From a virus (Duplodnaviria > Heunggongvirae > Uroviricota > Caudoviricetes), in IMG/VR virus record IMGVR_UViG_2703718800_000011: a stretch of DNA of 6,095 bases. One strand, given 5' to 3'. Positions within the stretch are counted from its first letter, which is position 1, and every line of letters starts with the position of its first letter. The notes beneath the pieces were generated by a model that was not told the DNA's origin, did no database searches, and was given only the letters and a program-made list of their open reading frames with translations. The translations under genes were made by a program, and so were the position numbers. Of this stretch, positions 1,828 to 6,095 are shown piece by piece.

Positions 1828-2328
1828 TCAGACTTTCGGCAAATCGTAGCGACATAACCATTCATCCGCCGAACGGCGGGCCTCAAGACCGGGGAGTTTC
1901 ACCCCCTTCGAATAAATCCAGCGGATGTACTGCTTACAGGACGCGGGCATCTGCCCGGCATTGATCAGGCGCAGAAGCGTGGAGTTGCGGAAGTTCGTTT
2001 CACCAGCCCAGAAGATCCACGAAGCCAGCGCCACCGTCTGACCACGGGTAAGCGGCACCTGAACACGCCGATCAATGGCCGCAAAGGCCCATTTCATGTC
2101 CTTTTCCAGTAGTTCCAGGCATTCTTCATCCGTCAGGGTCATACCCGGTTTCACATCCGGGCCGGTATGGCCGTAACAGATGGTTGGTGTACCGGTGGGA
2201 TCGATATACGTGGAGTTTTCTTTCCCTTCCCAGTAACCGGTGTAATGCGTGGTAATGGTGAACGTCCCGGCACCGGCCATAACAAGGGCAATCAGCTTTT
2301 TACGCAGTGGTGCGGGGAGTTTTGGCAT
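1828..2328 (-). CDS. SAR (signal-anchor-release) endolysin, phage lysozyme family (GH24, T4/P21-type)
   Basis: 166 aa. Weakly hydrophobic Gly/Ala-rich N-terminus LIALVMAGAGTFTITT typical of SAR domains. E...D...T catalytic arrangement in WEGKENSTYIDPTGTPTICYGHTG, then the GETNFRNSTLLRLINAG and GLEARR motifs that I recall from P21 R-type lysozymes. Confidence 0.85.
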   Translation of the reverse strand: MPKLPAPLRKKLIALVMAGAGTFTITTHYTGYWEGKENSTYIDPTGTPTICYGHTGPDVKPGMTLTDEECLELLEKDMKWAFAAIDRRVQVPLTRGQTVALASWIFWAGETNFRNSTLLRLINAGQMPASCKQYIRWIYSKGVKLPGLEARRSADEWLCRYDLPKV

Positions 2329-2399: not shown

Positions 2400-2822
2400 T
2401 CAGAAAAGTGGCGGTTGCGTTCTTGCCAGATGCAGACGGCGCTGTTCGCGTATGACGGTATAAATCTGGGTTTCTGACATCCTGTAATGGCGGCGCAGGG
2501 TTTCAATTTTTTCGCCCTGGCTCCAGCGGGAAAAAATCTCATTATTGCGCAGTTCGGTGAAAAGGGATTCACCGACCGGGAGATAATAACCACGCCCGCC
2601 CATGTACCCGGCCTGTGCGGCCGCAACTTTACGGGCAAGCATTCCTGCCTGAGCAGGTTCAATCCCCTGACGGTGCAGTTCAGCACTGATCACATCAACC
2701 AGGTCCCGCAGCGTGCCGGGCCAGTTCTTTTTCAGCTCATCATCAGGAATGTCATCCAGACGGTCAATCAGCGCGTGCAGCTGTTCGCTGTCACCAAACA
2801 TGCTCATCTGTGTTTCAGCCAT
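2400..2822 (-). CDS. Mor/C-family transcriptional activator (Mu middle/late activator homolog)
   Basis: 140 aa. N-terminal acidic region with MFGDSEQLHALIDRLDD; C-terminal GGRGYYLPVGESLFTELRNNEIFSRWSQGEKIETLRRHYRMSETQIYTVIREQRRLHLARTQPPLF matches my recollection of the Mor family (GG..YIP, RN..I...F.G, HTH, and the Mu Mor C-terminus ...RRMRRLKYRQYQPSLL). GGAGG SD 5 nt upstream of ATG 2822; located immediately upstream of the endolysin. Confidence 0.75.
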   Translation of the reverse strand: MAETQMSMFGDSEQLHALIDRLDDIPDDELKKNWPGTLRDLVDVISAELHRQGIEPAQAGMLARKVAAAQAGYMGGRGYYLPVGESLFTELRNNEIFSRWSQGEKIETLRRHYRMSETQIYTVIREQRRLHLARTQPPLF

Positions 2823-2854
2823 ACCCGCCTCCGGTCATCATTACACAGGGCAAG

Positions 2855-2888
2855 TTTAAAATAAAAATCCCGCGCTGTGGCGGGATTT
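2855..2888 (-). terminator. Intrinsic terminator hairpin, copy 1 (strong for minus-strand transcripts)
   Basis: AAATCCCGC-gctgtg-GCGGGATTT at 2865..2888: perfect 9 bp stem, 6 nt loop. On the minus-strand RNA the stem is followed by UUUUUAUUUU. Sits 43 nt upstream of the Mor/C-like ATG. Confidence 0.6.
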
Positions 2889-2930
2889 AGAGGCGCTGTA
2901 AATCATAACCCGAAATGAGCTGTGTATTTA

Positions 2931-2959
2931 TTGATCATTTTCCGGTGTAACTATATGAT
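2931..2959 (+). promoter_or_regulatory. Candidate sigma70-type promoter for the plus-strand cargo gene
   Basis: TTGATC (2931..2936), 17 nt spacer, TATGAT (2954..2959) on the plus strand in an AT-rich tract, about 200 nt upstream of ATG 3163. Pattern match only. Confidence 0.3.
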
Positions 2960-3162
2960 AAAGATCGTTTTTATTTTTAAAAATACAAACCCTGAAGGAG
3001 TTTTTCTTATCAAAAAGCTTGTGCATATTGCGGGTTATTGTTGTTTCATCAACATGAAAACCAATTATCCCAACTCTTAAAGCACACCAGGCTTGCTCCA
3101 GTGCAAAAACAAATAATTTCAGTCTGCCTGACAGCGTTCCACCGGAATAAAGGAAGATATCC

Positions 3163-3585
3163 ATGAAACAACCTCCATCTTTGCTTTTATCGTGCCCACC
3201 AGAACTGGCCCATGAACTCAATGATCTGGCGAAAGAGTATAAACTTACAAATCATAATATAGAAGCAGCAACACTTAGTGCTGCCGGAAGCGATATTGTA
3301 TTGATCGTTCTGGCCGCAGCTTCATGCGATGGGTTCTGGCAGGCATTAGCCAGTATGTTTCAGACGTGGTTACATCGTAAACCAACAAAACAAACACCCC
3401 CGGAAAAGAAAGTTATTCGTAGCGTCATTGTTCGTAGCTGGGAACACTATCAGGAGACAACTAAACAAACTGAATTTTATAACTTTGATGCTGATGAGCT
3501 GGCTAAATTGATAGCGTTATATGAAAAACCAGATGAAACAATTGGTTGCATAATCCCGTCAGAAACGGAAATTCAGGAAAAATAA
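3163..3585 (+). CDS. Hypothetical protein encoded by an opposite-strand, AT-rich moron cassette; one predicted hydrophobic helix; family not recognised
   Basis: 140 aa. The only convincing plus-strand ORF in the window. ATG 3163 is preceded by AAGGAAG with a 6 nt spacer. Stop TAA (3583..3585) runs directly into terminator copy 2. Composition is visibly more AT-rich than the flanking phage genes. Hydrophobic segment SDIVLIVLAAASCDGFWQALASMF; C-terminal half charged and acidic. Confidence 0.6.
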   Translation: MKQPPSLLLSCPPELAHELNDLAKEYKLTNHNIEAATLSAAGSDIVLIVLAAASCDGFWQALASMFQTWLHRKPTKQTPPEKKVIRSVIVRSWEHYQETTKQTEFYNFDADELAKLIALYEKPDETIGCIIPSETEIQEK

Positions 3586-3608
3586 AATCCCGCACTGTGG
3601 CGGGATTT
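3575..3608 (-). terminator. Intrinsic terminator hairpin, copy 2 (terminates the minus-strand early operon after the GemA-like gene; also follows the plus-strand cargo gene)
   Basis: AAATCCCGC-actgtg-GCGGGATTT at 3585..3608: 9 bp stem, 6 nt loop. On the minus-strand RNA it is followed by UUUUAUUUUU. Begins 4 nt after the GemA-like stop (3612). Near-identical to copy 1 over about 31 bp. Confidence 0.65.
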
Positions 3609-3611
3609 GGG

Positions 3612-4121
3612 TTAACAGGGGAATGATTTTTCATACAGCCTGCAAACGCGCTCATAACTCATCACTGCACGCTCCGACATATCCAGGGCTGCCAGCATTT
3701 TGCGGCGGTGCCAGCGTTTGAGACGCTCCAGCACATCAGAGGCCAGCTCGGGGTGTTGCTCCAGCCACTGCCAGTTAGCCACACCTTCGCCGCCGTTCTG
3801 CGCGGCCGTCTGCGATTGCACCCAGCGGTTAAGGGCCGTTTCCGCACCATCAGAAATAAAGCCCTGCCGGTGCATCACTTTCCAGATGGCGCGAATTTTG
3901 GCGGTCACCGTACCCGGCTTTAAGGCCCGGTTAACCGGTTTCTGACGCACTTTAAAACCGCGTTTTTTGAAAACATCCAGTACGCGGGATAACTCATCCG
4001 GTGACATATCCCGGCAACTGGCTTTACCGGTGGCTGCCAGCAGTGCGGATGTATAGGTTTCATCATCCAGAGCAAGCTCGCGTTTTGCCACATGAATGGC
4101 AGATATCAGTTTTCCTCTCAT
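3612..4121 (-). CDS. GemA-like protein (Mu gp16 family, DUF1018-type)
   Basis: 169 aa. N-terminus MRGKLISAIHVAKRELALDDETYTSALLAATGKASCRDMSPDELSRVLDVFKKRGF fits my recollection of the gp16/GemA signature (LI..IH.AK..L.LDD..YR.LL...TGK.S..DM...EL..VL). Start overlaps the upstream stop as ATGA. Confidence 0.7.
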   Translation of the reverse strand: MRGKLISAIHVAKRELALDDETYTSALLAATGKASCRDMSPDELSRVLDVFKKRGFKVRQKPVNRALKPGTVTAKIRAIWKVMHRQGFISDGAETALNRWVQSQTAAQNGGEGVANWQWLEQHPELASDVLERLKRWHRRKMLAALDMSERAVMSYERVCRLYEKSFPC

Positions 4122-4429
4122 ACCGTATTTACCTTTTTACGGACATGGAAAGCCTTTTCTGGCTCATTCCACCGGATATGATGCGTTGGCGGAATAATCA
4201 TTATGTGCCAGCCATCTCTGGTTGTTATTCGGCAGAAAAACTCACCGCTGTATAACACAATGGCCTGCTGAATAAGCGCATCCGCAGCCAGCTCAAGCAG
4301 ATATCTTTTATCAAAAAGGCTGATAATTTTCCGGCATAACCACCGGGTGATAACAAATGCGCCGAAAAACGATGTGATATATAAACACCAGAACAGCAGA
4401 GAAATATTGTCCGTTATTTGCTCATCCAT
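4118..4429 (-). CDS. Small membrane protein, unknown function
   Basis: 103 aa with one clear transmembrane segment ISLLFWCLYITSFFGAFVITRWLC. GGGAGA SD 6 nt upstream of ATG 4429. Sequence looks more AT-rich than its neighbours. Translationally coupled at both ends. Confidence 0.55.
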   Translation of the reverse strand: MDEQITDNISLLFWCLYITSFFGAFVITRWLCRKIISLFDKRYLLELAADALIQQAIVLYSGEFFCRITTRDGWHIMIIPPTHHIRWNEPEKAFHVRKKVNTV

Positions 4430-4754
4430 TGTGTATCTCCCGTAATTCCGGTAAAGCCGAAATATGGCACCAGTGCGTCACCTGTCCATCCTCATCTTCA
4501 AGGCAGGCTCCGGTTTCTTCATCAACAAAAAAACCTTCATACCCGATATGGCCGATGCGCAGCTCCTGTCGGTGACCGTACTGAACAATCAGTACAACAG
4601 CCTCCATATCAGGCGGGAAAGCATCATTCAGTGAATGCCAGGGATAACCGCGCAAATCCCCGAAATAAACCCCGGTCAGGGTTCCGCCACAGACCGGCAT
4701 CCCGGCGGCACATACCAGAGGTTCGTCTGATTCAACAAATAAGGTCGTTATCAT
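4422..4754 (-). CDS. Hypothetical acidic protein, unknown function
   Basis: 110 aa (MITTLFVESDEPLVCAAGMPVCGG...FVDEETGACLEDEDGQVTHWCH...). GGGAG SD 8 nt upstream of ATG 4754. ATGA overlap with the upstream gene and 8 nt overlap with the downstream one. Confidence 0.5.
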   Translation of the reverse strand: MITTLFVESDEPLVCAAGMPVCGGTLTGVYFGDLRGYPWHSLNDAFPPDMEAVVLIVQYGHRQELRIGHIGYEGFFVDEETGACLEDEDGQVTHWCHISALPELREIHNG

Positions 4755-5302
4755 GGCGTTAACTCCCGTAATACAGCGTCCCCGGCAGTCCGGCGATGGT
4801 GATAAATAAAATTCACCGTACTCTCGGATAATTCAAATTTCTCGCCTATTTCCCGGAAGGTAAGACGTCGTGGTGATTCAGCATCCCGTAATTCACGAAT
4901 AAGATGAACATCATCGTCAGGTATACGGGTGAAGGGCAGCAATTCTCCGTATTTTTTCATGCTTACGCCAATATATCGCGCCCGATTGTGGACAGAATCC
5001 CGGTCTCGCCCCAGATATTCTCCTATTTGCTTACCGGTCATCGTTCTGGCATTTTTTCGGATAAATTTATCTTCATCATGTTTAAATCTTGGACGTTTGC
5101 ATTTGAGCAACTCCGGGTAAGTACCGCGTAATAAAACAATCCGGTTATGTACACCCCAGAAACTTCTTTTTACCCTGACAGCAATATCCTTAACCGGGGT
5201 GGATGAATAAAGCGCAATCAGCAGCGCATCTTCTTCAGGTGTCCACGGACGGACATGAGCGGGGGCGCGACCTTTTCGCCCCATGGGTTGTAAAATCATC
5301 AT
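4751..5302 (-). CDS. Putative DNA-binding protein with repeated helix-turn-helix-like segments
   Basis: 183 aa. AGGGGGTGA SD upstream of ATG 5302. Contains WTPEEDALLIALY (SANT/Myb-like signature) plus two further HTH-like stretches, MTGKQIGEYLGRDRDSVHNRARYIGV and LTFREIGEKFELSESTVNFIYHHRR. Family not recognised. Confidence 0.55.
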   Translation of the reverse strand: MMILQPMGRKGRAPAHVRPWTPEEDALLIALYSSTPVKDIAVRVKRSFWGVHNRIVLLRGTYPELLKCKRPRFKHDEDKFIRKNARTMTGKQIGEYLGRDRDSVHNRARYIGVSMKKYGELLPFTRIPDDDVHLIRELRDAESPRRLTFREIGEKFELSESTVNFIYHHRRTAGDAVLRELTP

Positions 5303-5305
5303 ACA

Positions 5306-5536
5306 TCACCCCCTGACTCGCTTTTCAGCAGCATAAAACTCATCAGACAGAATTTCGGTCATTTTCTGATTTGCGGGTTTTACGCCGCACTCAAGGTAAA
5401 TCACATCGTCAACGCAGAACCACTTCACAGGGCCAAACATGATTGCCGAGAAATCAATACCCAGCCAGAACAACAGTGCATCGGTTCTGGCATACGTGAC
5501 GGGCGAATATTCACGCCACAGAAAGGTTTTCGCCAT
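5306..5536 (-). CDS. Hypothetical small protein
   Basis: 76 aa (MAKTFLWREYSPVTYARTDALLFWLGIDFSAIMFGPVKWFCVDDVIYLECGVKPANQKMTEILSDEFYAAEKRVRG). Stop lies 4 nt before the next start. Its 5' part overlaps the 104-aa ORF in another frame; weak SD. Confidence 0.45.
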   Translation of the reverse strand: MAKTFLWREYSPVTYARTDALLFWLGIDFSAIMFGPVKWFCVDDVIYLECGVKPANQKMTEILSDEFYAAEKRVRG

Positions 5537-5739
5537 AAGTCGCGATGAAAAGGATATTTGTCATCCATAAAGCGCAGCCCCTTAAAACAAAAGCCACTGA
5601 TACTGAATTCAAATACCGACCGGCACGCAACATTCAGCACGGCCTCAAGGCGTTTCGCCTCATCTTTTACCGTCTGGCAGTCCTGCTGGTATTTTTGCCA
5701 CGCAGCCAGCGCGGCAGGGTTTGATGTTTTAAAGAACAT
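5425..5739 (-). CDS. Hypothetical small protein; 3' extent doubtful
   Basis: 104 aa ORF whose ATG overlaps the upstream stop as TAATG. The N-terminal part (MFFKTSNPAALAAWQKYQQDCQTVKDEAKRLEAVLNVA) looks protein-like; the C-terminal part is Cys/Trp-rich and overlaps the 76-aa ORF, so the real gene may be shorter or frameshifted. Confidence 0.3.
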   Translation of the reverse strand: MFFKTSNPAALAAWQKYQQDCQTVKDEAKRLEAVLNVACRSVFEFSISGFCFKGLRFMDDKYPFHRDLWRKPFCGVNIRPSRMPEPMHCCSGWVLISRQSCLAL

Positions 5740-6095
5740 TACTCTACCTCCGCAGAAATCGCGGCAGGCGCAGCCGTCCGGTCAACAATCAGGTAACGCA
5801 GAACATGTTCGGTGATATTCCAGCCGCTTAAACCGCAGATAATGACGCCCAGGCGAATGTCGATATACGCCATCACAAACTGGGGCACGCCTTCTTTCAT
5901 GGCCTGCTCATCAACTTCAGCCACCACATAAACGGTTTCACAGGTCAGAACGCCCTGAGCAAATTCCCACGCCATCGACGGAATATCATGCCCCTCAATC
6001 CACGGCAGGGATTTTCTGAAGCTGCACCACTGAACATCATCAGCCGCACCTTCCTGGCTGCATTTGCGACGAACCGGCTGCACCGGGCGGGGACG
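5739..6095 (-). CDS. Hypothetical early-region protein; N-terminus probably beyond the window end
   Basis: Frame is open from the window edge (6095) to the stop at 5739. The track's start at 6083 is a GTG, and the first in-frame ATG is further in (MAWEFAQGVLTCETVYVVAEVDEQAMKEGVPQFVMAYIDIRLGVIICGLSGW...), so the true start is unresolved. No family recognised. Confidence 0.45.
   Translation of the reverse strand, partial: RPRPVQPVRRKCSQEGAADDVQWCSFRKSLPWIEGHDIPSMAWEFAQGVLTCETVYVVAEVDEQAMKEGVPQFVMAYIDIRLGVIICGLSGWNITEHVLRYLIVDRTAAPAAISAEVE

Follow-up and report, generated by a model that had tools for sequence, protein, structure and literature searches.

A putative D5-like protein with three HTH units from a Mu-like Escherichia coli prophage

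Profile comparison identifies the 183-aa protein encoded on the minus strand at positions 4751-5302 of the window (the whole 6,095-nt stretch of DNA analysed here) as a member of the PHROG 323 family, a D5-like kind of protein that is already known, widespread and little characterised. This protein, referred to below as the three-HTH protein, probably binds duplex DNA and would thereby exert an accessory control over transcription or replication at the early stage of the lytic cycle.

Family membership and the gene

The three-HTH protein matches PHROG 323 ('transcriptional regulator, D5-like') with an E value of 5.3e-58 and a score of 198 bits, residues 2-182 lying on profile positions 80-256 of 319, and D5 of phage T5 (T5.118, YP_006946.1) matches the same profile at E 1.2e-71, covering positions 3-270. 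When the three-HTH family was compared directly with D5 by hhalign, family positions 18-169 aligned with D5 71-232 (97.2%, E 4.5e-11, 147 columns) and all three HTH units were collinear between the two proteins, although with only 27% identity over these columns this is a remote homology. D5 is a protein of 255 aa that is longer by approximately 70 residues at its N-terminus and has an Ala/Lys-rich tail, whereas the three-HTH protein has a 19-residue arm before its first unit; the D5 N-terminal region (~70 residues) is missing from it, the match starting at profile position 80. D5 comes from a virulent phage and the three-HTH protein from a Mu-like prophage, but both are encoded by early genes among replication genes, that of D5 sitting between the ligase gene and the helicase, primase and polymerase genes in the T5 record. 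That record labels D5 a DNA-binding protein on which DNA replication and late transcription depend, and which also takes part in a shut-off of expression. The primary reference for D5, listed in PMC12630848, is McCorquodale et al. (1979, J Virol 29:322).

Phage Mu itself encodes a two-unit member of PHROG 323, gp9 (E8, NP_050613.1, 99 aa; E 5e-29), which in a comparison that is pairwise only aligns with residues 66-168 of the three-HTH protein, i.e. units 2 and 3, with 30% identity and E 5e-10. The gp9 gene also belongs to the Mu early region, but lies upstream of gam, whereas the three-HTH gene instead follows gp12. A full-length homologue is absent from Mu; tblastn of the phage collection did not return Mu. 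We also compared the 97-aa ORF found upstream of gam in the source prophage, which is not a gp9 homologue, and found none at the Mu position. These comparisons link the uncharacterised Mu gp9 and the three-HTH protein to T5 D5; a search of the literature on the PHROG 323-type family, Mu early-region genes and Myb-like phage proteins found no functional study, and no DNA-binding experiment on the three-HTH protein or a close relative.

The ORF list of the window contains a 183-aa ORF with an ATG start that spans exactly 4751-5302, as a first-pass annotation of this DNA had reported without giving the strand. An identical CDS is present in the E. coli genome NZ_CP075697.1, where its product (WP_033804471.1) is annotated 'hypothetical protein'. 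Comparison with 11 alleles gave dN/dS values of 0.16-0.55, the top value of 0.55 coming from one allele with only seven differences, and values of 0.16-0.32 for the nine alleles that differ at 15 or more nucleotides. The gene is real and under purifying selection; we judge it real because its dN/dS is low and near-identical proteins are widespread. The encoded protein is basic (computed pI 10.1, net charge +12), with the positive charge located in the N-terminal arm, units 1 and 2 and the linkers, and with unit 3 net negative. The GC content of the gene is 0.43-0.50, compared with 0.55-0.62 for the core genes, as is to be expected of an accessory gene.

Repeated HTH units had been thought unusual for a small phage protein, which PHROG 323, BFVD and a cluster search do not bear out. 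The family profile retrieved 7987 proteins at E <= 1e-3 from 1.84 billion cluster representatives, 1410 of them at E <= 1e-10, and many of these matches are long proteins with 5-12 tandem units and Pfam Myb_DNA-binding. BFVD gave nine matches at E <= 1e-3; phage proteins of 100-180 aa that carry two or three of these units are numerous in it, and some of the lower-ranked matches are annotated as endonucleases. A single cluster of near-identical proteins at 95% identity has 1547 member sequences, and the region is found in 232 of 5426 complete E. coli genomes (~4%), including Shiga-toxin-producing strains; a scan of genome contigs returned only one locus. Three metagenomic or genomic proteins of 480-800 aa (P0127, P0130 and P0140) consist almost wholly of 6-12 tandem copies of the HTH unit, and in P0127 these are near-identical repeats of ~50 aa (WTPAEDALLREHG...LGIARQ).

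Repeats and predicted fold

The first-pass annotation had noted three HTH-like repeats, one of them with a Myb/SANT-like WTPEEDALL motif. In the lone sequence the repeats are only suggestive and within chance, with Smith-Waterman comparison against 3000 shuffles giving p values of ~0.05 (R1/R2), 0.06 (R2/R3) and 0.20 (R1/R3). The family alignment, which comprises 119 sequences (the three-HTH protein and 118 full-length homologues), was then cut into slices that were compared by hhalign. R1 aligned with R2 at 98.7% probability (E 4e-16, 43 columns) and R2 with R3 at 94.5% (E 8e-8), and R1 with R3 gave a weak match (71.5%, E 4e-5) over only 19 columns of the HTH core. An AlphaFold2 model built from the family alignment (mean pLDDT 87.7) is all-alpha, with strands absent, and has helices at residues 22-32, 37-44 and 48-61 (bundle 1), 75-84, 90-97 and 101-110 (bundle 2) and 129-140, 149-156 and 160-169 (bundle 3), together with an extra helix near the C-terminus (172-181) and an N-terminal arm (1-19) modelled at low confidence (pLDDT 62-63). 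Both the family comparison and the model therefore uphold the three repeats, and the structure prediction that had been named as a check yields an HTH fold in the form of three three-helix bundles, the mutual arrangement of which is uncertain in the model (pTM 0.60). The WTPEEDALL motif was likewise confirmed and starts unit 1, at residues 20-28 (window 5219-5245, minus strand). The parts of the gene and protein are as follows, column entropy having been computed over 56 non-redundant family members.

4751-5302, minus strand: complete CDS of the three-HTH protein, 183 aa, with its TGA stop at 4751-4753 (ORF list, PHROG 323 match, dN/dS)
5246-5302, minus strand: N-terminal arm, residues 1-19 (MMILQPMGRKGRAPAHVRP) (pLDDT 62-63; entropy 0.87 bits; net charge +4)
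5117-5245, minus strand: unit 1, residues 20-62, predicted Myb/SANT-like three-helix HTH beginning WTPEEDALL (helices; sub-threshold Pfam Myb; alignment with c-Myb R2)
4970-5086, minus strand: unit 2, residues 73-111, predicted Myb-like three-helix HTH, FKHDEDKFIR...VHNRARYI (helices; R1/R2 hhalign; c-Myb R3 in register)
4922-4969, minus strand: linker between units 2 and 3, residues 112-127, with invariant K117 and G119 (119-sequence alignment; entropy 1.55 bits)
4793-4921, minus strand: unit 3, residues 128-170, predicted HTH nearer to sigma-70 region 4, AsnC-type and Tc3 (helices; sub-threshold Pfam; R2/R3 hhalign)
4754-4792, minus strand: C-terminal helix and tail, residues 171-183 (RTAGDAVLRELTP) (helix 172-181; entropy 0.79 bits over residues 170-183, the lowest of the family)

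Nothing in Pfam or NCBIfam matched the three-HTH protein above curated cut-offs, and its Pfam matches (Myb at 19-33, and HTH_AsnC-type, HTH_11 and Sigma70_r4 at 131-167) were all sub-threshold. A sequence search of PDB chains with the single protein found nothing below E 0.1, Myb being reached only by the family profile, and whole-chain Foldseek against the PDB likewise had no hit under this value. At the head of the Foldseek list stand sigma factors, which with E above 0.1 and a TM of ~0.2 are not meaningful.

Operon context and distribution

The window comes from a Mu-like E. coli prophage, of which it covers the early/middle region; the phage origin noted earlier holds. Compared with NZ_CP075697.1 (strain STEC2018-607), it carries four substitutions and one 82-nt net deletion. 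Every phage gene in it lies on the minus strand, in the order Gp11, Gp12-like, three-HTH, two small ORFs, GemA, an insert, Mor and lysozyme:

5739-6083, minus strand: Gp11 C-terminal domain (ORF list, domain matches)
5306-5739, minus strand: Mu Gp12-like gene, disrupted here (ORF list, PHROG)
4751-4754, minus strand: ATGA stop/start overlap between the TGA of the three-HTH gene and the ATG of the next ORF (sequence and ORF coordinates)
4422-4754, minus strand: small ORF, PHROG 6925 (ORF list, PHROG)
4118-4429, minus strand: small ORF, PHROG 17269 (ORF list, PHROG)
3612-4121, minus strand: GemA (ORF list, domain matches)
2400-2822, minus strand: Mor-family activator (ORF list, domain matches)
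1828-2328, minus strand: lysozyme (ORF list, domain matches)

The ATGA overlap indicates translational coupling in a single operon. The gap between the Gp12-like gene and the three-HTH gene is only 3 nt, and no promoter-like site was seen upstream of the three-HTH gene on its strand. As it is packed in an early operon without a promoter-like site of its own, the three-HTH gene should be expressed on induction and not in the lysogen.

At window positions 5523-5524, AA replaces an 84-nt segment of the closest genome, NZ_CP075697.1 (13124-13207 of its prophage locus, L002), which is kept in two other relatives. This net loss of 82 nt frameshifts the Gp12-like gene into ORFs at 5425-5739 and 5306-5536, in place of the 171-aa CDS that is intact elsewhere. 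Between GemA and the Mor-family gene, at 2850-3610, lies a low-GC insert (0.37-0.44 compared with 0.55-0.62) that looks like a moron cassette. It holds a 140-aa ORF on the plus strand (3163-3585), for which no match was found in Pfam, PHROGs, NCBIfam or PADLOC, and is flanked by hairpin terminators at 3585-3608 and 2865-2888 that are almost the same in sequence (AAATCCCGCCACAG[T/C]GCGGGATTT). A single Mor/C-family gene (2400-2822; L002 10001-10423) is found between GemA and lysozyme, where Mu has both mor and C and several small genes between. In NZ_CP075697.1 (L002 20858-21961 and 2718-2805) the Mu-like prophage interrupts the cellulose synthase gene, the PilZ-domain CDS beside bcsB is annotated without its N-terminus, and a 'tRNA-OTHER' is annotated within the prophage head-gene region.

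The distribution of the gene was examined in 80 IMG/VR loci, which were sorted by marker proteins; this sample is pattern-biased and redundant and its counts are descriptive only.

Mu-like, 43 loci: three-HTH gene directly after Gp12 in 42/43 (wherever the flank is present) and before GemA in 35/43 (where sampled)
P2-like, 30 loci: three-HTH gene upstream of that of the replication initiator gpA
Neither marker set, 7 loci: the one examined (L089) is lambdoid, with the gene just after the O and P replication genes

In several P2-like loci the three-HTH gene overlaps gpA by 4 nt. As it stands beside replication functions in Mu-like, P2-like and lambdoid prophages alike, the three-HTH gene travels as a self-contained module between early operons in temperate phages of three types. 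A gene for a Dam-type (D12 class) methyltransferase lies within ~700 nt of it in 26 of the 30 P2-like loci, and no such neighbour is present among the 43 Mu-like loci, the present window included. This adjacency may be functional, or the position upstream of gpA may merely be a common accessory slot. In two of the P2-like loci (L065 and L066) the order is reversed, with the methyltransferase and three-HTH genes still adjacent.

Predicted recognition helices and proposed role

Conservation in the family is highest at the C-terminal helix (0.79 bits), in the N-terminal arm (0.87 bits) and in the first helices. It is lowest in the three third helices, i.e. the predicted recognition helices, at 2.36-2.55 bits. 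Among the Mu-like alleles these helices make up 19% of the length but account for 41% of the amino-acid changes, and their dN/dS of 0.41-0.87, compared with 0.17-0.21 elsewhere, indicates that they evolve 3-5 times faster than the rest of the protein. Such fast evolution argues against a single conserved operator or target; it fits allele-specific targets, non-specific binding of the D5 kind or a fast-evolving protein interface. Fast-evolving predicted recognition helices on a conserved scaffold are the sole unusual aspect of this family.

We propose that the three-HTH protein is produced within the early lytic operon of the Mu-like prophage and that its three units would then sit side by side on duplex DNA, each inserting its third helix into the major groove. 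Extra contacts or self-association might come from the basic, conserved N-terminal arm, from the linker that joins units 2 and 3 and from the C-terminal helix, and the result would be a modulated transcription and/or replication, of the phage or the host, in early lytic growth, as described for D5. The DNA-binding reading rests on PHROG 323 membership, collinearity with D5, the Myb/GcrA fold and the basic pI of 10.1, and on these grounds the part of the first-pass annotation that suggested a DNA-binding protein or transcription factor still offers the best reading. In its favour are also the family-profile matches to c-Myb R2R3, given below, and to an archaeal CRISPR-repeat-binding protein with two tandem HTH (PDB 2lvs) at E 2e-4, although the latter is an archaeal, two-unit protein from an unrelated biological context, as well as the position of the gene in the operon and beside replication functions. 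Nothing was found in support of the partition or anti-defence roles that it had offered besides, and PADLOC, whose library covers defence systems and not anti-defence, gave no match. Several points count against this reading: the homology to D5 is remote, the Pfam and NCBIfam scores are sub-threshold, whole-chain Foldseek had no significant match, the arrangement of the units in the model is uncertain, eukaryotic SANT-type domains often bind proteins and not DNA, and the third helices are the most variable parts, as they would not be in a regulator with a conserved operator. If the D5-like reading is true, it supplies a working hypothesis for an accessory gene that is widespread in Mu-like, P2-like and lambdoid prophages, although no new kind of biology is opened.

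A possible, if rather doubtful, alternative is that the three-HTH protein acts as a Myb R2R3-type transcription factor with sequence specificity, by which each phage lineage would read its own phage or host operator by means of variant helices. Family profile positions 18-106 align in one stretch with c-Myb 60-150 (R2R3; whole-sequence E 3.3e-8), with units 1 and 2 in register, and the likeness to c-Myb/SANT (PF00249) includes an HTH fold of three helices, a first helix that opens with W-T-x-E-E-D, and the V-H-N-R in the third helix of units 1 and 2, which is HMM-aligned with the recognition helix of c-Myb. Specificity switching would also be expected to leave a conserved scaffold with variable third helices. 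However, the same family occurs in Mu-like, P2-like and lambdoid backbones without common regulatory DNA, and T5 D5 is reported in the older literature to bind duplex DNA without marked specificity. The protein also departs from Myb in several respects. It scores 16.5 bits with PF00249 against a gathering cut-off of 24.4 and 16.3 with PF13921 against 22.9, and some relatives of 42-50% identity carry precomputed PF00249 matches of unchecked significance. Canonical Myb repeats have three regularly spaced tryptophans each, of which the three-HTH family keeps only the invariant W20; the second and third Trp positions are aliphatic, and units 2 and 3 begin with F73 and I127/P128. In addition, the three-HTH protein has an extra, non-Myb-like third unit and a bacterial-virus setting.

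The best fold match is the DNA-binding domain of GcrA (PDB 5yiu), which raises the possibility of a GcrA-like methylation reader or cofactor that senses or directs DNA methylation and is tied to early expression or replication. GcrA combines a single such domain with a C-terminal domain that binds sigma-70, and reads N6-methyladenine sites. The three-HTH protein differs in having three HTH units and no sigma-70-binding domain, and the GcrA HMM (PF07750), which includes this C-terminal part, was not matched by it in Pfam. Besides the fold, the methyltransferase gene adjacent in most P2-like loci favours a methylation reader, but Mu-like loci, the present one included, are without this neighbour, and we consider this explanation unlikely. 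Equally speculative is its extension to a phage reader whose diversifying helices would follow a DNA or host target as it changes, linking Dam-type methylation to the early-to-replication switch in enterobacterial temperate phages.

The three-HTH protein might otherwise be a SANT-like adaptor that binds protein and not DNA, aimed at host RNA polymerase, a nucleoid protein or a defence factor, which we regard as quite improbable. Its strongly basic charge suits nucleic acid binding, D5 is annotated as a DNA-binding protein and the PADLOC defence models are unmatched. Homologous units moreover accompany a nuclease domain in gp103 of mycobacteriophage Thibault, annotated as an HNH endonuclease, the N-terminal two units of which match PHROG 323 (E 4e-32) and have 35% identity with residues 12-114 of the three-HTH protein; gp103 has a C-terminal HNH nuclease domain, whereas the three-HTH protein has no nuclease domain. 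That the same units form the N-terminus of an HNH endonuclease suggests that the HTH unit is a portable DNA-binding module. Thibault gp103 lies between gp102 and gp105 (gp102-gp105 = L014 2000-3801), both annotated 'DNA methylase', an arrangement that may represent a homing endonuclease splitting a methylase gene.

It is hardly credible that the three-HTH protein is a small alternative sigma-like factor, as the sub-threshold Sigma70_r4 match on unit 3 and the non-significant Foldseek list might hint, or the functionless DNA-targeting remnant of a homing endonuclease such as the HNH enzymes that bear the same units, given on the one hand a TIGR02937 score of 14.2 bits against 42.9, a Sigma70_r4 score of 19.3 against 24.1 and no region 2 match, and on the other the purifying selection on the gene and the family-specific termini conserved in hundreds of prophages. 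An AsnC/Lrp identity was also rejected. Near-identical (95%) proteins are named 'AsnC family protein' at NCBI, but PF13404 gives 21.9 bits against a cut-off of 27, no RAM (AsnC_trans_reg) domain is found in Pfam and the model is without beta strands, so that this misleading database name is a misnomer and is corrected here.

In comparison with the 72%-identical alleles (L048 and L057), dS is 0.04-0.07 in the N-terminal arm, first helix and C-terminal helix and ~0.5 elsewhere. The low dS of these parts, set against ~0.5 in the rest, suggests that the central part of the gene has been exchanged by recombination to give a mosaic allele.
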